64,000 bases of DNA from a virus: IMG/VR virus record IMGVR_UViG_3300046311_000263, positions 13,376 to 77,375 of that record. One strand, written 5' to 3'. Both the position numbers and the translations under genes were made by a program. The notes below the pieces were generated by a model. That model did not search any database, was not told the origin of the DNA, and worked only from the letters and a program-made list of their open reading frames with translations. Below, one piece after another: positions 4,515 to 61,183 of the stretch (the first letter of the stretch is position 1; the number at the start of each line of letters is the position of its first letter).

Positions 4515-5115
4515 GTCTCAGGTAGACTCATACAAGTACGTTGATGGCGATAACGTTGTACGTATTTTTGGCGGCATTTTGCCGCGATATCTATATTGGT
4601 TAAAGGGTACTAATAATAAAGATATCCCTGTTGAGTGCCTAGCATTTGATCGTGAGAAGGAAAAGTTCAACAACTTAGTAGTTGATCACGTTCCAGAGTT
4701 TTACCCTGATCTTAAGTGCAGCTGGTCGTACAGTATTAACTGTATTGACGTTAAGAATGGCGGAGCTGTTAAGGTACTGAACCTTAAGAAGAAGCTGTTT
4801 GAACAAATCAAAACCGCAGCGGAAGAATTAGGTGATCCTACAGATCCTGAAACAGGGTGGGATATTGTGTTCAAGCGAGTTAAAACTGGCCCGCACACTT
4901 TCAACGTTGAGTATACCTTAGCCGCCCTGAAGTGCAAGCGTCGTGCACTAACGGCTGAAGAGCTAGCCGCAATTGCTGCGGATCCGGGTATTGACGCTAA
5001 GTACCCTAGGGCAACTCCGGAAGAAGTATTAGCCACTTTAGAAAAGATCGCTAAGGGCGCTCAAGCCGAGGAAGAAGTTCCCGCTGAAGCTGCCGAAGCC
5101 GTATCGGATCTATAA
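4474..5115 (+). CDS. D11: D11-like putative ssDNA-binding protein
   Basis: GDPTDPETGWDIVFKRVKTGP motif, acidic C-terminal tail, T5 synteny. Confidence 0.85.
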   Translation: MALAFGNTQGKAIKSQVDSYKYVDGDNVVRIFGGILPRYLYWLKGTNNKDIPVECLAFDREKEKFNNLVVDHVPEFYPDLKCSWSYSINCIDVKNGGAVKVLNLKKKLFEQIKTAAEELGDPTDPETGWDIVFKRVKTGPHTFNVEYTLAALKCKRRALTAEELAAIAADPGIDAKYPRATPEEVLATLEKIAKGAQAEEEVPAEAAEAVSDL

Positions 5116-5120
5116 AAATA

Positions 5121-5157
5121 AAAAGCCCCCTAAGGTTGAGCCTATAGGGGGCTTTTC
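5121..5157 (+). terminator. Intrinsic terminator
   Basis: AAAAGCCCCCTA...TAGGGGGCTTTT hairpin. Confidence 0.8.
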
Positions 5158-47687: not shown

Positions 47688-49004
47688 TCATAAAGTATAC
47701 GTATATACTGCGTACCTTATAGCGTCGGGTATGTGACTGTGCGTATGCAAAGGCTTTTCCTTTGTCAGCGTAGCTTTAGTATCCCATTGATACTGATCAA
47801 GAGCAGCTAGAGTATGTACGCAATGAGGAGAAATCTTTAGTCGATTATTATCTATTAAAGACTGCACATATGCAATACCTGGCAATACGTCTTTCTTAGC
47901 TTTGATAGTGGAAATGTTATAAATGTGTGCTAAATCGGACGCAAATTGTGGCGCTGCTGAGTCTATAAATATGGAGTCTATTTTCCATTTGTCTACAAAC
48001 TCAGCAATAGAAGCAGCGTGCTCTGGTGTATTACGCTCGGCTTCTAAATACTCGTCCACGATATGAAATACGTCGTCTAGTGGGCTATACACTATTACTA
48101 CGAAAGCCGTAGGGTCGCGATACCCAGGGTCTAGGCCAGCTATTACTTCAGTGCCATCAACTGGTAAGTACTCGCAAACATTAGAGTCTACAACGCTATA
48201 AATCTGACCCTCGAATGAGTTAAATGACGCCATGTACTCTTGTTCAAATTCGTTCTTTGACATAGAGTTACGAGCTTCAGCAGCGTCAGACTCAAGCATT
48301 CTATGGTTCTCACGATAGTCAGCTTTAATAGATACCCACTCAGGATACTTATCAGAATACCCACGCTGGAAGAATGTACTGAACCAGTTATTCTTACCGC
48401 GGGGAGTAGAGATAAATATAGCTTTAGAATTCTTACGATCTAGCGTGGGTCGTAGAGATACGTTGAAAGCTGCTTCGCCATCAGCACCTAGAGCAGCTTC
48501 GTCGAAGATAATCAAATTATACGAACGTCCAACTGAAGAGTCTACTGTGGATAAAGATCCCATTCGTACTGAAGAGCCGTTAGATAGCTCAATTACCTTA
48601 TCTTTTAAGTTATCTCTAGCAACCTCTAAATCAAAAGAAGCAATCAAATGACGCTGTATTTCGAACGAGATGGAAGATAGACTGAAGTTAGGAGACATAA
48701 TCAGTACGTTACAGGAAGGTACTAGAGCTACTAACTGCCCAATAATATTAGAAATATAAGTTTTACCCAATCGGCGCGCTAGTGCAGCACAAACAAATCT
48801 AATCCTAGGATCGTTGATTGCATTAATAAGCGCAATCTGGGGGTCATTGATCTGATCCCACGCAGTGGAAGGCTCGTCTGTTACAGGATCGCGCGCTGGT
48901 AATAACTTTAAATACGGTGTGATAGGTAATTTGATAAACCTATCCGCCATTGGAAACTCAGTAATTTCAGTACTAGAGATTCCTGGTCTGCTAATTTCCA
49001 GCAT
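47688..49004 (-). CDS. terL: Terminase large subunit
   Basis: RRLGKT, IFDEAA, ISTPRG, GLDPG, DAIRYA. Confidence 0.96.
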   Translation of the reverse strand: MLEISRPGISSTEITEFPMADRFIKLPITPYLKLLPARDPVTDEPSTAWDQINDPQIALINAINDPRIRFVCAALARRLGKTYISNIIGQLVALVPSCNVLIMSPNFSLSSISFEIQRHLIASFDLEVARDNLKDKVIELSNGSSVRMGSLSTVDSSVGRSYNLIIFDEAALGADGEAAFNVSLRPTLDRKNSKAIFISTPRGKNNWFSTFFQRGYSDKYPEWVSIKADYRENHRMLESDAAEARNSMSKNEFEQEYMASFNSFEGQIYSVVDSNVCEYLPVDGTEVIAGLDPGYRDPTAFVVIVYSPLDDVFHIVDEYLEAERNTPEHAASIAEFVDKWKIDSIFIDSAAPQFASDLAHIYNISTIKAKKDVLPGIAYVQSLIDNNRLKISPHCVHTLAALDQYQWDTKATLTKEKPLHTHSHIPDAIRYAVYTYTL

Positions 49005-49655: not shown

Positions 49656-49934
49656 GTGTATTTTTCTAGGGTTTAAAGCTTACTTGAATAATCTAGGTTA
49701 TTTTGTTAAAATAATGGCTTGGCACCGTAATTGTTTTCTAAAATTTTCTAAATAGGCCTTGGTGGTGGGTGTATAGGCATGGGTGGACATGTTAGTCAAG
49801 TATCCCCCCCAGTATACCACAGTCTCATGGCCCACGGCAAGCTAAAAGATGTAACAACCTGTAACTTATAAGGTTATTGTTGTAGGTTAATTTTCGTGTT
49901 ATACTACGTTCACGCAATCAAAAAGGACTCCCAA

Positions 49935-50318
49935 ATGAACCGCGATACCGTTCTGCTCTCGATCATCAAGCAACTTATGCTGTCCCTCGACTCCTATGAG
50001 ATGAGGGCTCTTCTGGAAAAGGTTCTGGACAAGGAGCCGGAAGCTATTGCTCGCGGCCTGGGTGTTCATGTCCCTGTCCCTGTGACTGTAGAGGCGACCC
50101 CGGCATGGGCGTATGAGACGGTTGCCTTTCTGCGGAGCGCACACAAGGTGTCAGCTATCAAGGCTGTGCGTGCCGCTACCGGCATGGGCTTGAAGGAGGC
50201 AAAAGACACGATTGATTACTTCAGCGGGTACGGGGACGTTACTCACTACGGCCTATGTTACAAGGGGCAGGAGGCTGTTGCTGCCCTGCGTCGTGTTACC
50301 GGTACACTCTATATCTAA
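49935..50318 (+). CDS. Protein with ribosomal bL12 (L7/L12) C-terminal-domain-like motif
   Basis: KVSAIKAVRAATGMGLKEAKDTID; AGGA SD. Confidence 0.75.
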   Translation: MNRDTVLLSIIKQLMLSLDSYEMRALLEKVLDKEPEAIARGLGVHVPVPVTVEATPAWAYETVAFLRSAHKVSAIKAVRAATGMGLKEAKDTIDYFSGYGDVTHYGLCYKGQEAVAALRRVTGTLYI

Positions 50319-50473
50319 GTAGAGCAATAGGGGTTAGCCCCTATTGGCGCCTAAATTATACCACATAATTTAGGCCCGTGTCAACGTGCAGGACGTAACA
50401 ACCTGTAACTTGTAAGGTTGTTGCATTCCTAGAATTTTGCTGCTATACTACGTTCATTGTATAGGAGATAGAG

Positions 50474-50605
50474 ATGAGCAACCCGAACCAAGCCCGCTAC
50501 CTGACCCTGATCTGCGAAGCTGAGCGTTGGGGGAATCAAAGGGCATGTACGAAGTTGCCGCTATCTACTACGCTGCTGCTAACAAGCTGGAGATTAACTG
50601 AATGA
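50474..50605 (+). CDS. Small ORF, possibly frameshifted in a G5 run
   Basis: AGGAG SD; alternative frame after TGGGGG reads GMYEVAAIYYAAANKLEIN. Confidence 0.5.
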   Translation: MSNPNQARYLTLICEAERWGNQRACTKLPLSTTLLLTSWRLTE

Positions 50606-50757
50606 AACTCTTTCGCATCGCCTACCGCTTCATGATCAGCGACTTTCATGTCGAGGTGCAGTTCCGTGCCGCAAACAAGCAAATAGCCAAGGAGCTATTC
50701 ACTGAATTCATGCAACCGCAACATACCGAGATCGTGCTGGTCGAAACTGTCAAGTAA
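50602..50757 (+). CDS. Hypothetical protein (51 aa)
   Basis: MKLFRIAYRF..., GGAG SD, ends at repeat. Confidence 0.7.
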   Translation: MKLFRIAYRFMISDFHVEVQFRAANKQIAKELFTEFMQPQHTEIVLVETVK

Positions 50758-50922
50758 TTAATTGTAACAGCAAGTTGCTCGCTGTTACAATTTTGCGCCA
50801 AAATTATACCATATAATTTTGGGGCGGGTCAAAAAAGAACTGTAACAACCTGTAACTTGTAGGGGTATTACTTCACTAGAATTTTTTATGTTATACTACG
50901 TTCACTTTATAGGAGATATGAG

Positions 50923-51108
50923 ATGCCTAAAGCTCTCGAAAACCCCGAAATCCCTCTCTACGTGCGTCGCGTGTTGGCCGATGCTGCGCTCGAATACGCT
51001 AACGCTTTGGTTAAGAGCGAAAACGTCGAGCGTGCCTTCCGAGCCCTCAACCTTGCAGCAGATGATGCGATAACGTGTCTGCGTGCCTCCTATCTGGGGA
51101 TGAAGTAA
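50923..51108 (+). CDS. Hypothetical protein
   Basis: AGGAG SD, promoter upstream. Confidence 0.75.
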   Translation: MPKALENPEIPLYVRRVLADAALEYANALVKSENVERAFRALNLAADDAITCLRASYLGMK

Positions 51109-51332
51109 TGAACGGGCTGCGTCAAGTTTCTAGCCCGATGGTGCTGATTCCTGCATACGGTCGCGTATACACTACCCGCGAGGCTATGCTAAAAGACTGG
51201 GAGGCGGGTAAAGATTTCCGTGTGGTTGGGCATGGGTGCTACACCAGTATCCGTGATCTGGCCATGTTGCGGGAAAGTAGCAGCAGCGTTACCCTGCACG
51301 AGCCGCGCGCGCATATTCACATCAAGCTGTAA
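51108..51332 (+). CDS. Hypothetical protein
   Basis: TAATG coupling; PAYGRVY..DWEAGKDF motif. Confidence 0.75.
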   Translation: MNGLRQVSSPMVLIPAYGRVYTTREAMLKDWEAGKDFRVVGHGCYTSIRDLAMLRESSSSVTLHEPRAHIHIKL

Positions 51333-51565
51333 ACAATAACCCTACAGGTTGTAGGGTTATTTGCGCCGATTATACCATATATAATCGCCCCGCGTCACGC
51401 GGAGAAGTGTAACAATGTGTAAGCACGTTGTTACGATTTGCGCCAAAATTATACCACACCGCGTATGCACTGTCTATAGGAGTTTACCACTAGCAAATAG
51501 TTGTTGACTCTGTACCTAGCAGGCATCATAATAGATTCATCGGATCAAGAAACGGACTGCCAAAA

Positions 51566-51754
51566 ATGACCTCCTCCAAGTTCACTCCCGCCGTCGGTCT
51601 GCGTTGCTGGGTTCGCGTGTACTCTAGCGGCCGCACGGAAGTTCACTTTGTGGAAATCGTCGAACTGTTCGGCGTGGTAGGTGCTCGCGTGCAGATCATT
51701 GGGGATCGCATCATCCGCGTTTGTCAGTCGCAACTGTGCGCTAACCCTGTCTAA
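51566..51754 (+). CDS. Hypothetical protein
   Basis: Promoter TTGACT-17-CATAAT upstream; stop codon begins the cassette repeat. Confidence 0.7.
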   Translation: MTSSKFTPAVGLRCWVRVYSSGRTEVHFVEIVELFGVVGARVQIIGDRIIRVCQSQLCANPV

Positions 51755-51785
51755 GGGTTTGTCCCAATAGCCTTAGGAGTTACAA

Positions 51786-51926
51786 ATGGACACGAATCCC
51801 AACATGTACAAGCAAATGAATTCCCGCTTTGCCTACGCGGCTGTCAATTCGTCATTCGCTGACAACTTCTACTGGCAGGACACTGGCGGTTTTGCGTCCA
51901 TGTGGCTTATGGGCGGCGAGCTGTAA
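51786..51926 (+). CDS. Hypothetical protein (46 aa)
   Basis: AGGAG SD; MDTNPNMYKQ...GGEL. Confidence 0.7.
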   Translation: MDTNPNMYKQMNSRFAYAAVNSSFADNFYWQDTGGFASMWLMGGEL

Positions 51927-51991
51927 GGGTTTGTCCTAATAGCGGCAGGACTGCAAAGCCGCTAAACTGTGATCTCACTTTTGGAGTTTCT

Positions 51992-52123
51992 ATGAACCGC
52001 TTTCAACGTGGCTTTACCCTGTTTGAACTGATCTTTGTGATCGTTTGGCTGGCCTTTGCTGGCGCAGGCATCTACCTGCTGTCCCTGGTGGTGCGTGCGC
52101 TGCTGAAATACATTGGCGGCTAA
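51992..52123 (+). CDS. Mini prepilin-like protein (class III signal peptide only, 43 aa)
   Basis: MNRFQRG|FTLFELIFVIV: Gly-1, Phe+1, Glu+5, hydrophobic helix; GGAG SD. Confidence 0.8.
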   Translation: MNRFQRGFTLFELIFVIVWLAFAGAGIYLLSLVVRALLKYIGG

Positions 52124-52189
52124 GGGTTTGTACTAATAGCGGCAGCACACAAAAGCCGCTAAACTGTGATCTCACTTTTGGAGTTTTTG

Positions 52190-52360
52190 ATGAAGATTTT
52201 TGCTGGTTTCCTAAGCCTTGTCGGCCTGATTCTGTCCTCGATTGTTGGGTACCAGCTGGTGCAGGCTGTGATGCCGTCGCTGTTTCCACTGTGGCTGGCT
52301 AGCACACTGTTTATTTGGTGTGGGCTGGTGGCTAATACTGTTTCCAGGATGGAACAGTAA
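52190..52360 (+). CDS. Small two-helix membrane protein (56 aa)
   Basis: GGAG SD; hydrophobic. Confidence 0.7.
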   Translation: MKIFAGFLSLVGLILSSIVGYQLVQAVMPSLFPLWLASTLFIWCGLVANTVSRMEQ

Positions 52361-52432
52361 GGGTTTGTCCTAATAGCGGCAGGACTGCAAAGCCGCTAAA
52401 CTGTGATCTCACTTCAACGATTGGACTGTAAA

Positions 52433-52603
52433 ATGAACCTGACCCGTGCAAACGAAATCCGCGCTTCCCTCGGTCTGGCTCCGGTGGCTGGCCCTGATGC
52501 TGTGGCTGTCCAGGCGCAGAAGCGTCGTCAGGCTGCCAACAAGGCCGCCCGCGCGCAGGAGTCGCGCGATCTGAAGGCCAAGCGAGGCAGCCGCTCCAAG
52601 TGA
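52433..52603 (+). CDS. Small basic protein (56 aa)
   Basis: NEIRASLGLAP then Arg/Lys/Ala-rich tail. Confidence 0.7.
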   Translation: MNLTRANEIRASLGLAPVAGPDAVAVQAQKRRQAANKAARAQESRDLKAKRGSRSK

Positions 52604-52743
52604 GCAAAGCCCCTACAAGCTGTAGGGGCTTTTTGCGCCAAAATTATACCATACAATTTTGGGGCGGGTCAAAAAAGAACTGTAACAACCTGTAACTTGT
52701 AGGGGTATTATACACCAGCGAATTTCCGTGCTAGAATGCATGC

Positions 52744-52959
52744 ATGGTCAAAATCATCTCCTGGATAGGTACTGCAACTAGCATTGCTGGATCTTTCATC
52801 GTTGCTTCACAAATGTTTTTGCTTGGCTATTGCTTTTTTCTCGTTGGCAGCGTATCATGGCTGTATGTCGGGGCTGTCCGTCGGGAGGCCTCCCTAGTAG
52901 TTTTGAACGGCACATTCTTTGCCGCTAACCTTTTGGGGCTTTACAATGCTGCATTTTAG
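52744..52959 (+). CDS. Small three-TM membrane protein, probably leaderless
   Basis: Hydrophobic; ATG 6 nt after TAGAAT. Confidence 0.75.
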   Translation: MVKIISWIGTATSIAGSFIVASQMFLLGYCFFLVGSVSWLYVGAVRREASLVVLNGTFFAANLLGLYNAAF

Positions 52960-53019
52960 CTTTTTGTTTGTCGTCATTCTGGCATTCGTGCCGCTCAGTA
53001 TTGTGTACAGGAACCTGAA

Positions 53020-53169
53020 ATGAAATTCGGTATTCTTTTCCAGCCGGGAGCTTTCTGGATCGGTGTGCATTATTCACCATTTTGCAAACGGTATTGCATC
53101 AATTTGATTCCGTTTGTTACCCTCTGGGTCGCTGAAAAAGACGGCAAAATTCCGCACTCCACGCGATGA
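53020..53169 (+). CDS. Hypothetical protein (49 aa)
   Basis: FWIGVHYSPFCKRYCINLIPFVTLW; AGGA SD. Confidence 0.7.
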   Translation: MKFGILFQPGAFWIGVHYSPFCKRYCINLIPFVTLWVAEKDGKIPHSTR

Positions 53170-53249
53170 AAGAATATCAGATTCAGAAACTGATAAATTC
53201 CGCGCTGCTGGAAGTACTTGCGATTTTTGGTTATTTGCCTAGGAGTTAA

Positions 53250-53451
53250 TATGTGGTTTCCGTACGATGATTCTAAGGTAAACGATTTTTTCAGCAAGGA
53301 AAAAGATTTCTTGCTGAAATTGGATTATACTCGTGTTGTGATAGCGGGGTTATTCAATAATGGCGTTGATGGGTATCAATGGATTACCAGCGAGAATTGC
53401 CGAGTAATTCCCAGGGATAGAATCACGGATTACATGAGCATTCCGGACTAA
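53250..53451 (+). CDS. Hypothetical protein
   Basis: AGGAG SD before MWFPYDD; start approximate. Confidence 0.6.
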
Positions 53452-53456
53452 ACAGC

Positions 53457-53609
53457 ATGAAAGATAATCAAATGTGGCAAAAATGGTTTGCTTGGTATCC
53501 AGTAGCTTTTGGCCCTTATATCGTGTGGATGAAAACTGTCCAGCGAAAACAAGTGATTATGGAGGGACGTAAATATTGGTTCTATCGTAGAAACGTATTT
53601 CCGCTCTAA
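53457..53609 (+). CDS. Hypothetical protein (50 aa)
   Basis: WFAWYPV...IVWMK motif. Confidence 0.6.
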   Translation: MKDNQMWQKWFAWYPVAFGPYIVWMKTVQRKQVIMEGRKYWFYRRNVFPL

Positions 53610-53739
53610 TAAATAAGGGGAAACCCTTATTTTTGCGCCAATTTTACCACATAAAATTGGGCCAGGTCAAAAAAGAATTGTAACAACCTGTAACTTGTAG
53701 GGCTATTGCTTCGCTAGAATTTTCTGTTATACTCTACGC

Positions 53740-54120
53740 ATGATGACACCTGAACAGATGCTGGCGGACGCTCTACCCTGGGCAGACTATTGGTGGGCGA
53801 AGTTTAAGGGCATATATCGCTTGACTAAGCCTATGTCGACGTTTAAAATGAATAAACGGCTTAAGACAACGGCCGGGCGTAATTTCTGGATCGAGCGGGT
53901 TATTGATCTAAGCGTGGAATTGTATGGACAATATCCAGACGAATTTCGGTGCGAGATAATCCCGCATGAGTTGGCCCATCAAGTTACGTTTGACGTATAT
54001 GGAGAATGTCGGCAGATTCACGGCACAGAATGGAAATCTGTGATGCGTGCGGTAGGTCGAGAGCCTAGCACGTATCACAGTATGGAAAATCAGATTCACG
54101 CAGCGAGGAAAGCAAAATGA
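53740..54120 (+). CDS. SprT-like zinc metalloprotease, probably leaderless
   Basis: RLKTTAG, HELAH, HGTEWK. Confidence 0.88.
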   Translation: MMTPEQMLADALPWADYWWAKFKGIYRLTKPMSTFKMNKRLKTTAGRNFWIERVIDLSVELYGQYPDEFRCEIIPHELAHQVTFDVYGECRQIHGTEWKSVMRAVGREPSTYHSMENQIHAARKAK

Positions 54121-54239
54121 AAATTTTCGAGATTGTGTTTTGGAACGGGCAGAGCCAAATTGTTTTTGCTGAAACCCGTCGCGAGATTCGCAAAAAATTC
54201 ATTGGTATTCGTGAAATTAACCGGGTGGAAATTCATTGA
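54117..54239 (+). CDS. Hypothetical protein (40 aa)
   Basis: ATGA coupling, GAGG SD. Confidence 0.6.
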   Translation: MKIFEIVFWNGQSQIVFAETRREIRKKFIGIREINRVEIH

Positions 54240-54600
54240 TGGAAGCCGTTACTGTTCTTTTGTGGTGCGCTGCAGCGCTGCCCCTTTCTTGTGTTTTGTT
54301 TGGTGCTATTCAGGGGTTGTTCGACCCTGATATTCCGGATATTACCCATTCGGATATTGATCCGGAAATGTAATAGTAACCAATAAGGGTAAACCCTTAT
54401 TGGCGCCATTTTACTGTGGTAAAATGGGCCGTGTCAAGCGGTACTGTGTAACAGTTTGTAACAGCGTCTGCCGATAGGTAGGCGCCAAAATTATACCACA
54501 CGCCGAAACGGCTGTCTATAGGTGTTTTCACCTAGAAAATAGTTGGCACGAAACGGAAAAGTGCGATAGAATAGCATCACTGTAGAGCAAAGGACGCATA

Positions 54601-55077
54601 ATGGCAACGATTCGCAAGGTTTCGATTTACGACATGGATGGCACGATTGTGGATTCGACGCATCGCTATCGCACGCAAACCATTAACGGCGTCGAGAAAA
54701 TTGACCTTGAATATTGGCGTGCAAATGAATATCGCGCAATGGAAGATGGTTTGCTCCCGCTGGCGGATCAGTATATGGACGAATTGCGCGATCCGTCCGT
54801 CTATGTGATTATTGCCACTGCCCGCGTTATGGGCGCTGCCGACTGGCAGTTTGTGCGCAATATTCTCGGCGAACCCGATTACTTTATTTCCCGCGCTGCG
54901 GACGATACTCAGTCCGGCGGTTCGCTGAAAATCAAGGGGTTGCAAAAGTTTTTCAATCTGCGGCAGTTTCGCAAAGCTGATGCGGTTTTCTACGAAGATA
55001 ATACTTCGTATCTGAAGGCGGTTTGTGACCATTTTCAAATTCGGGGTGTTTACATTCCGTCGAAGCAGGGGCACTAA
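54601..55077 (+). CDS. dmp: HAD-family deoxynucleoside-5'-monophosphatase (T5 Dmp-like)
   Basis: YDMDGTIVDSTHR, DGLLPL, IIATARVM, YEDN match recalled T5 Dmp motifs. Confidence 0.85.
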   Translation: MATIRKVSIYDMDGTIVDSTHRYRTQTINGVEKIDLEYWRANEYRAMEDGLLPLADQYMDELRDPSVYVIIATARVMGAADWQFVRNILGEPDYFISRAADDTQSGGSLKIKGLQKFFNLRQFRKADAVFYEDNTSYLKAVCDHFQIRGVYIPSKQGH

Positions 55078-55185
55078 AATGGGGGTTCTGTATATTTTCC
55101 TAATTCTTTTGGGAATATTCGGAGCCTATTTCCTGCTGGAATGGGCATGGGATTTTCTGGTTTCTTGGCCTTTTGAGGAATGAAT

Positions 55186-55353
55186 ATGGGTATGCTCGTA
55201 AATAAACTGATTTTCCAGCTTGGCAAAATTGAGCTGGAAATTTATCGGCTGAATACTGCTAAATCCTCGGCCGATATTTACGAGCGTAGTGAAATCCAAT
55301 ATAGGCTAGATAGCCTATACCGCGAGAAACAAGTATTGCTAGCGAGTATTTGA
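55186..55353 (+). CDS. Hypothetical coiled-coil protein (55 aa)
   Basis: GAGG SD; open frame. Confidence 0.6.
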   Translation: MGMLVNKLIFQLGKIELEIYRLNTAKSSADIYERSEIQYRLDSLYREKQVLLASI

Positions 55354-55601
55354 GATACTAATAAGGGTTTACCCTTATTTTTGCGCCAAAATTATACCAT
55401 ACAATTTTGGGCCGTGTCAATAGGGTAAACCCCTATTGACACAAACAAATGTGTAACATTTGTAACAGCTGTAGGCGCCAAAAATTATACCACACCCGAA
55501 AAAAGCTGTCAATAGGGGTTTGTCCTAGTGACGCGGTCGGCGGGATAGGGTAGACTCTACTTTGATCGCGCATTCCTGCCCGACATACTCTGGAATATAT
55601 A

Positions 55602-56300
55602 ATGGCCCGCAAGCAGTTTTTCATTGGTATTGATACTGAAACCACCATTACTGATAAGGTTGTGGATTTTGGCGCGGTTATTCACGATCGGGCCGGTAAT
55701 ATCTACGGCCAATGTGGCATTCTGGTTCGTGATGTTTTCGGCGTTGACGATTTGTTTTATGATCGTAATTCCTCGGGTATCTGGGCGCGTAATAGTATTG
55801 CCCGCCGGATGAATAACTACAACCAAATGCTGGATTCTGGTATTCGTATGTTGGCATCTGTTAATGCTATCAATAACTGGCTTGCTAAGGCAATTGGCAA
55901 ATATGATCCGACTATGTATGCCTATAATCTGGCATTTGACGAATCTAAATGCCGGAATACCGGAATTGATTTGAATGGGTTTTCCAATCGTTTCTGCCTT
56001 TGGGGCGCTGCGGTTGGCAACATCTGCAATACCAAAAAGTATCGGCAGTTTGTCATGGATAATCATCTGTTCAATAATCGTACCGAAAAGGGTAACATGA
56101 CCTTTTCGACTACTGCGGAATCGGTTACTGCTTTTCTTCGTGGCGAGTATACGGATGAACCGCATACTAGCGTCGAAGATATTATCGGGTATGAGATGCC
56201 GACCCTGGTACATATTCTGAAAAAGAAGGATTGGAAGGAAAAGATTACCCCCTATAACTGGCGCGGTTTTCAGGTCAAAAACCATTTTCAGGCTAAGTAA
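55602..56300 (+). CDS. DEDDh 3'-5' exonuclease
   Basis: IDTET, AYNLAFD, HTSVED. Confidence 0.88.
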   Translation: MARKQFFIGIDTETTITDKVVDFGAVIHDRAGNIYGQCGILVRDVFGVDDLFYDRNSSGIWARNSIARRMNNYNQMLDSGIRMLASVNAINNWLAKAIGKYDPTMYAYNLAFDESKCRNTGIDLNGFSNRFCLWGAAVGNICNTKKYRQFVMDNHLFNNRTEKGNMTFSTTAESVTAFLRGEYTDEPHTSVEDIIGYEMPTLVHILKKKDWKEKITPYNWRGFQVKNHFQAK

Positions 56301-60915: not shown

Positions 60916-60990
60916 GCCGTATTCGTCTAGTGGTTAGGACACCGGGGTTTCATCCCGTCAACGAGAGTTCGATTCTCTCATATGGTACCA
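60916..60990 (+). tRNA. tRNA-Glu(UUC), copy 1
   Basis: Cloverleaf, TTC anticodon, GAGAG-TTCGATT-CTCTC T arm, encoded CCA. Confidence 0.92.
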
Positions 60991-61108: not shown

Positions 61109-61183
61109 GCCGTATTCGTCTAGTGGTTAGGACACCGGGGTTTCATCCCGTCAACGAGAGTTCGATTCTCTCATATGGTACCA
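61109..61183 (+). tRNA. tRNA-Glu(UUC), copy 2
   Basis: Identical to copy 1. Confidence 0.92.

Follow-up and report, generated by a model that had tools for sequence, protein, structure and literature searches.

Judged from its own sequence and those of its relatives, the 43-codon open reading frame at positions 51992..52123 of an uncultured T5-like phage from freshwater is a genuine gene, and its product belongs to a conserved, previously undescribed family of very small membrane peptides rather than being a one-off mimic. Positions are those of the window, the whole 64,000-nucleotide stretch of DNA that was analysed, which belongs to an IMG/VR virus record of 77,375 bp with an estimated completeness of 73%. 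The peptide combines a class III (prepilin) signal with a single hydrophobic helix and a C-terminal tail that is absent from pilins. We tentatively propose that, once processed by a prepilin peptidase, it may jam the assembly of a type IV pilus or a type II secretion system (T2SS), a reading that we consider quite possible without calling it probable.

Results

Reading frame and start of the gene

The gene runs on the plus strand from ATG 51992 to a TAA stop at 52121-52123 (stop included in 51992..52123) and is translated as MNRFQRGFTLFELIFVIVWLAFAGAGIYLLSLVVRALLKYIGG (43 aa). A GGAG ribosome-binding site lies 5 nt 5′ of the ATG, and an earlier note on this DNA, which had called a 43-aa protein with this Shine-Dalgarno sequence, read it correctly. 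It had also remarked that the list of open reading frames obscured the gene by starting at 51902. That competing frame of 73 aa begins with GTG 51902, overlaps the 3′ end of the 51786-51926 gene and crosses an intergenic repeat. Because all 31 members of the family described below start 4-7 residues before the Gly position, ATG 51992 was taken as the start, and a second, independent gene caller also gave the 43-aa form (P0001). Thus, the GTG 51902 start was rejected as a longest-ORF artefact.

A family of mini-proteins from metagenomes

A word-based search retrieved only the 43-aa protein itself. Seven homologues of 42-45 aa with full-length alignments were found by an exhaustive phmmer search of 1.84 billion representatives, and a profile search of 5.8 billion proteins brought the family to 31 members, nearly all of 41-45 aa, with E values from 7e-19 to 2.5e-3 (alignment A8). 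Family members align end to end, the relatives are 33-70% identical overall, and all members come from metagenomes; for example, P0035, P0019 and P0026 are encoded on contigs of 110.6 kb, 61 kb and 28 kb. A length of 41-45 aa, one transmembrane (TM) helix and a C-terminal (V/I)RALLKYIGS define the family, and the peptide has all three. One family member, with PRGFTLMEVL…VIQALLKYIN, makes up the last 41 residues of P0037 (135 aa, from a 1.6-kb ENA contig), where it is preceded by a charged N-terminal part; P0037 is either a very-long-leader fusion or a gene-calling artefact.

Six sub-alignment profile scans of IMG/VR found no family member besides the present record. Three matches from one of these scans were rejected as ordinary long pilin-like proteins; they lie on unrelated IMG/VR contigs (L082:7986-9224, L083:189-539 and L084:7617-8549), have canonical RGFTL(V)EL N-termini, and continue for 412, 116 and ~190 aa after the motif, respectively. 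Among cultured phages, no megablast match to the region was obtained, and tblastn gave chance matches only, both with P0001 and P0029 as queries against phages and with P0018 against plasmids. Structural look-alikes of the peptide in the ESM Atlas scored 0.80, which is chance level, and no match of the peptide to any holin or toxin family was found in Pfam, NCBIfam or PHROG.

Class III signal and predicted mature peptide

The N-terminal MNRFQRG (51992..52012) forms a predicted leader ending in Gly-1, and cleavage after it would leave a mature peptide of 36 aa (52013..52120) with Phe+1, Glu+5, a 22-residue hydrophobic core and the tail RALLKYIGG. The leader, Gly-1, Phe+1 and Glu+5 had been named in the earlier note, and all are present. 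The NCBIfam model TIGR02532 (IV_pilin_GFxxxE) scored 18.5 bits, above its curated cut-off of 16.3, but the Pfam N_methyl model PF07963 scored 20.0 bits (E 4.9e-4), just below its gathering score of 21.2, so the anticipated HMM match to the N-methyl motif holds for the first model and falls short in the second. The rest of the 77-kb record contained no other N_methyl match, and a relaxed G[FYW..][TS]x.E scan, covering six frames of ~0.85 Mb of 80 related phage loci, gave no further N-terminal instance. The exhaustive search returned no pilin at E <= 1e-3, the pilin likeness being confined to a motif of ~14-20 residues.

A canonical class III signal occurs in 25 of the 31 family members. These 25 have 4-7 residues before the Gly, with R/K immediately before it in 23 of them; Gly-1, Phe/Tyr/Trp at +1, Thr/Ser at +2 and Glu at +5 are each found in 25/25, and 23/25 have a predicted mature length of exactly 36 residues. 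Other helix positions are free to vary in the same proteins, while Gly-1 and Glu+5 are fixed. Such conservation in a drifting helix is hard to explain except by selection on the motif.

The review by Berry and Pelicic (PMC4471445) places processing by the prepilin peptidase on the cytoplasmic face and calls the Gly critical to it, whereas Glu5 is dispensable for processing and required for assembly. That Glu+5 is invariant though dispensable for cleavage suggests a post-cleavage step, and would favour engagement of the assembly machinery over simple titration of the peptidase. The earlier note had described processing by PilD as established; its motif stands, but the word was too strong, and cleavage is treated here as a prediction. 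When the peptide family was modelled in complex with PilD of P. aeruginosa (LEP4_PSEAE), the score was 0.01, which counts neither for nor against cleavage.

Helix, conserved tail and motif-less relatives

AF2 predicted one continuous helix over residues 10-42 (pLDDT 88), which resembles pilin alpha1. The globular pilin head, with alpha1-C packed on a beta-sheet, is absent, and the claim that the 36 predicted mature residues hold no globular domain is thus borne out. Conservation within the family is highest in the C-terminal (V/I)RALLKYIGS, which in this peptide reads RALLKYIGG (52094..52120); A36, L37, K39 and Y40 are found in at least 90% of the 31 members (A8), and AL.[KR][YF] in 30 of 31. 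RALLKYIGS is absent from pilins. Six members (P0026, P0028-P0031 and P0033) keep the helix and the tail with unrelated N-termini that have no Gly/Glu, and they group loosely together, closest to a member that bears the motif. This indicates a possibility that the core activity does not need the pilin pathway.

No family member was found when 185,579 bacterial genomes and the JGI metagenomes were scanned with a sequence pattern. The matches included XRE/HTH regulators from gut Firmicutes that have a TM anchor at the N-terminus, with an invariant RALLKYI-x-S at the end of the anchor, and the genome matches were accordingly rejected as family members. The raw pattern matches numbered 31, against ~29 expected by chance according to our own rough estimate, and are not enough by themselves to establish a likeness. 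The family profile, however, retrieved XRE regulators at database-wide E values down to 1.5e-4, and hhalign matched the family to the XRE anchors with 96.6% probability (E 5.5e-10), which makes the likeness credible, on ~44 largely hydrophobic columns whose composition may inflate it.

Downstream of the regulator genes come those for a MobA/MobL relaxase, a primase and a VapE-like protein, neighbours that indicate a mobilizable element. Since the HTH domain must be cytoplasmic, RALLKYI faces the cytoplasm in the XRE regulators, which is opposite to the prepilin topology. A hairpin does not settle this conflict, because AF2 gives one continuous helix. The flank charges of the peptide are balanced and its topology is not fixed by charge count, and the long, highly basic N-terminal extension of P0031 argues for an N-in/C-out orientation, which is that of prepilins.

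The anchored regulators were seen at L087:8004-8339, L095:7971-8342 and 11 further Firmicutes loci. An identical regulator occurs in Blautia, Gemmiger, Flintibacter and Lachnospiraceae, directly upstream of the MobA/MobL relaxase, a CHC2 primase and the VapE-like gene, and the locus is an integrative mobilizable element common to several genera. In human-gut metagenome contigs (L104-L107, for example L106:3815-4777 and 4774-5145), a truncated VirD4/TraG-like ORF ends in a second TM-RALLKYI copy, possibly a stand-alone 37-aa peptide, immediately before the XRE gene with the same module. This arrangement looks like an element inserted into a coupling-protein gene.

A repeat-flanked cassette in a five-gene operon

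The gene is the third of five small plus-strand genes between a promoter and a terminator. The predicted promoter (51504..51532) is sigma-70-like, TTGACT-17-CATAAT, with 10/12 matches in a consensus scan. Gene 1 (51566..51754, 62 aa) and gene 2 (51786..51926, 46 aa, soluble) were taken from the ORF list; neither belongs to a known family according to Pfam, NCBIfam and PHROG, and neither has a homologue in 80 related loci. Gene 4 (52190..52360) encodes 56 aa with two predicted TM helices. Gene 5 (52433..52603, 56 aa, basic and Ala/Lys/Arg-rich) gave tblastn matches of 49-52% identity in three related loci (L041, L029 and L008) and, alone among the operon genes, has homologues in related phages, leaving four of the five, the 43-aa gene included, with no counterpart in the 80 loci. 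An intrinsic terminator hairpin followed by a T-run (52608..52635) ends the operon; its fold energy is -22 kcal/mol (z = -3.7), and 0/200 shuffles folded as well. The G+C content of the operon is 48-58%, compared to ~39-45% in its surroundings, and the whole stretch from the small terminase subunit to dmp is hypervariable among the 80 relatives.

A repeat of ~60 nt spans the distance from each operon stop codon to the next ribosome-binding site. The copy at 51924..51991 (~60-68 nt; families D3/D6, alignment A1) begins at the TAA of the preceding gene, includes a hairpin, TAGCGGC/GCCGCTA, and extends to the GGAG of the 43-aa gene. A second full copy (52121..52189), 84% identical to the reference copy, bears the ribosome-binding site of gene 4, and a third (52358..52432) is 97% identical to the 51924 copy. 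The repeat folded no better than shuffled sequence, so that a structured-RNA role finds no support in this comparison.

Contigs of other samples carry the 43-aa gene unchanged in three cases and a deletion in the fourth. In the deletion contig (run X5), 51922 is connected to 52357 by 58 nt that could belong to either flank, and the loss is a clean 434 bp. Recombination between the 51924..51991 copy on the left and the 52358..52432 copy on the right removed the 43-aa gene together with its 2-TM neighbour, gene 4. The 43-aa gene is thus a dispensable, recombining cassette, accessory to the phage and flanked by repeats. Since the joint of the X5 deletion, from which two cassettes are gone, lies at the repeats, the stop-to-RBS repeat (window 51752-52432) acts as a recombination site through which the array gains and loses single small genes.

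The strongest sigma-70 matches in the surrounding 49811-55512 (up to 12/12, with extended -10) are all on the minus strand, opposing conserved plus-strand genes. Examples are 50384-50355, 50832-50803, 52672-52643, 55420-55391 and 55512-55484, and most of these matches lie directly after plus-strand terminators and overlap a palindrome.

The phage and its early region

By its terminase and its dmp gene, the phage is assigned to the T5-like phages, which are virulent. The large terminase, encoded on the minus strand at 47688-49004, shares ~45% identity with its counterparts in T5-like phages of Serratia, Pectobacterium and Vibrio, and the terminases of 80 metagenomic relatives are 57-77% identical to it. 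The DNA was found in freshwater metagenomes of at least 8 studies. The 43-aa gene sits between the terminase and 54601-55077, a homologue of the T5-family deoxynucleoside-5′-monophosphatase gene dmp, which in T5 is a pre-early gene (bioRxiv 10.64898/2026.04.02.716235; 10.1101/866236). The region of small genes after the terminase plausibly corresponds by synteny to the T5 terminal-repeat (first-step-transfer) region, which would make pre-early timing plausible. The 43-aa gene is therefore probably early and may be pre-early, in line with the setting that the earlier note had proposed.

Several other genes of this region were noted. The gene at 52744-52959 encodes a 71-aa protein with two to three TM segments and a near-threshold DUF6552 match (26.7 vs 27 bits) and, unlike its neighbours, is kept in 13 related phages. 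A SprT-like zinc metalloprotease (53740-54120, 126 aa) and a 232-aa phrog_20187 protein with no assigned function (55602-56300) are early-region genes conserved in 21-24 relatives. Close to the end of the record, two tRNA-Glu(UUC) genes (60916-60990 and 61109-61183) are separated by 120 nt. G001, a relative of the phage with a complete genome of 99.7 kb, encodes a 75-aa protein that begins MKRANKG followed by FTVTELIMLIAVV and has a tiny C-terminal part with two cysteines (L112:1345-1584, minus strand, which is the same as ~2630-2870 of G001:C1). It is prepilin-like by eye and was rejected as a counterpart of the 43-aa protein, being sub-threshold in the HMMs and non-syntenic with the cassette.

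Discussion

Proposed mechanism

Direct observation covers the gene, its family, the motif with its conservation, the helix, the operon and the dispensability of the gene. In the mechanism that we propose, the peptide would insert into the inner membrane as a single helix in the way of a type IV prepilin, with its N-terminus inside and its C-terminus in the periplasm. A host prepilin peptidase of the PilD/GspO type, whose presence, like that of pili, we assume, would then cut off MNRFQRG and methylate Phe+1, and the product would be a 36-residue 'stalk' with Glu+5 and the conserved periplasmic tail RALLKYIGG. This headless stalk, with its pilin assembly interface, would join the pilin pool and engage the platform of a type IV pilus, a type II secretion system or a competence system, where in our model an assembly interface without a head makes a non-productive subunit. 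The conserved tail would supply the blocking contact, and filament assembly would be blocked or weakened. The likely gain to the phage would be removal of the receptor of competing phages (superinfection exclusion) or the shutting down of a host envelope function.

The accessory nature of the gene, absent from 80 related loci and deleted in one population, fits a function in competition, and the promoter-like site, the GGAG ribosome-binding site and the strong terminator are predicted expression signals that lend support. Against a jamming role stand the non-pilin tail as the best-conserved part, the motif-less relatives, the opposite topology of the XRE regulators and the Pfam N_methyl score below the gathering score.

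Alternative readings

The same observations could mean that the active part is the TM helix with the juxtamembrane RALLKYIGS motif, which would act as an effector on another host membrane protein or as a self-associating anchor. The class III signal would then be only a device for insertion, maturation or topology, and neither pilus nor secretion would be the target. This reading is possible and rather doubtful. The near-invariance of RALLKYIGS (A36, L37, K39 and Y40 in at least 90% of the 31 members) speaks for it, as do the six members that lack the prepilin motif, keep both helix and tail and are nearest to a motif-bearing member, and the recurrence of the module as an XRE anchor on Firmicutes mobilizable elements, where it cannot be a pilin. 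On the other hand, 25 members at ~50% overall identity all retain the buried Glu, the Gly and Thr+2, with a fixed mature length of 36; a mere insertion signal needs no Glu+5, which is dispensable for cleavage (PMC4471445); and the XRE likeness, on its ~44 largely hydrophobic columns, is possibly inflated by composition.

In a further reading, the 36-residue peptide would be a modular phage weapon. The class III signal would be the delivery address, via PilD to a type IV platform, and the RALLKYIGS tail a stalling warhead; the helix-plus-tail would be reused with other N-termini and as a regulator anchor of Gram-positive mobile elements, and would thus form an undescribed cross-phylum, orientation-tolerant membrane interaction module. 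We offer this as a speculation that is rather unlikely to hold in full.

Two further alternatives we judge improbable to a similar extent. The peptide might be a decoy, a high-affinity or abundant substrate that titrates PilD/GspO and leaves host prepilins and pseudopilins unprocessed, in keeping with its canonical leader and Gly-1 and with the multi-promoter early region of a T5-like phage; yet this leaves the invariant Glu+5, the fixed 36-aa length, the C-terminal motif and the motif-less relatives unexplained, and enzyme turnover would make titration by a cleavable substrate inefficient. It might also perturb membranes like a viroporin, a holin or a type I toxin, its helix oligomerizing and depolarizing or permeabilizing the inner membrane for takeover or for the timing of lysis. 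A single helix of 33 residues that has small residues (G/A/S) at its centre and ends in a basic tail, the adjoining tiny 2-TM protein, and a weak, non-significant match to Pfam Phage_MS2_lysis (E 0.09) would suit such a role, but the peptide has no similarity to holin or toxin families, depolarization at a pre-early or early stage would presumably harm the phage's own cycle, and conservation of the prepilin motif is left unexplained. That the ORF is non-functional, a chance frame or what is left of a host pilin gene that was captured and is decaying, is suggested by its very short length, its absence from all related phages examined (80 loci) and its loss in one population, and is very improbable in view of 31 relatives of the same length that are conserved from end to end and share a conserved non-pilin C-terminus, a proper ribosome-binding site within a repeated cassette, and a gene identical in three independent samples.

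Comparison with known systems

Returning to the proposed block of filament assembly, the general idea of a phage-encoded pilin-like protein is already known. What is new here is the fixed 36-residue mature length, the invariant non-pilin tail, the motif-less siblings and the link to Firmicutes anchors. FimU-like pilins of prophages give anti-phage defence, and truncated PilA-like proteins comprising ~60 N-terminal residues are encoded by six virulent Pseudomonas phages, for which inhibition of pilus assembly was suggested and not assayed (PMC12952977). The 30-aa membrane peptide PfsE of Pf phages blocks pili via PilC (PMC8764522).

A close parallel is the truncated P-PilA (Sztanko et al., Cell Rep 2026, PMC12952977), which is carried by non-temperate phages, as ours probably is, and consists of the N-terminal pilin helix only, with no head; its proposed roles are incorporation without receptor sites or inhibited pilus assembly. 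Our peptide differs from its description in a mature length of 36 aa vs ~60, in the RALLKYIGS tail, in its motif-less siblings and in its T5-like freshwater phage. P-FimU of F10-like Pseudomonas phages likewise carries a phage-encoded class III signal; it enters the host pilus system and protects against other pilus-dependent phages, but is a full-length minor pilin with a globular domain, located at the pilus tip without loss of function and expressed from a prophage (PMC12952977). PfsE is a tiny, single-helix inner-membrane peptide of a phage with a cytoplasmic N-terminus, as is proposed for our peptide, and it stops pilus extension and excludes pilus-dependent phages (PMC8764522). It has no prepilin signal, acts with a YAWGW aromatic motif and PilC binding, and shares no sequence similarity with the 43-aa peptide; a PfsE-type YxWGW aromatic motif is absent from the 43-aa sequence.

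With type IV pilins and T2SS pseudopilins (PF07963, TIGR02532; Berry & Pelicic 2015, PMC4471445), the peptide shares the hydrophilic leader ending in Gly, Phe+1, Thr+2, Glu+5 and the alpha1-N helix. Unlike them, it has no alpha1-C/beta-sheet head and no D-region, its hydrophobic stretch is of 27 vs ~21 residues and is followed by the family-specific tail, and its gene does not lie beside pilus or T2SS assembly genes, being one of five small, unrelated genes that make up an operon of the phage. The Firmicutes XRE/HTH anchor has a TM helix of similar length and the invariant RALLKYI-x-S end that underlie the profile-profile match, and differs in having no prepilin motif, in its fusion to a cytoplasmic HTH domain with the motif on the cytoplasmic side, and in its Gram-positive gut hosts.

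Significance

The family is real, conserved and experimentally tractable, and the XRE and motif-less data raise a serious alternative to reading it as a pilus poison. Its fixed mature length, the invariant Gly-1 and Glu+5 and the separate invariant tail provide clear mutational handles, which make the role of truncated phage pilins, a question raised by the work on P-PilA (PMC12952977), directly testable. The motif-less siblings and the Firmicutes anchor add a natural control that separates address from effector. If the peptide is indeed processed and stalls assembly, no smaller substrate and inhibitor of type IV filament machines would be known, and its 36 residues would serve as a defined probe of pilin recognition and membrane extraction and as a template for designing anti-virulence peptides that target pili and type II secretion. 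It would also be an example of phage-versus-phage competition in freshwater communities.
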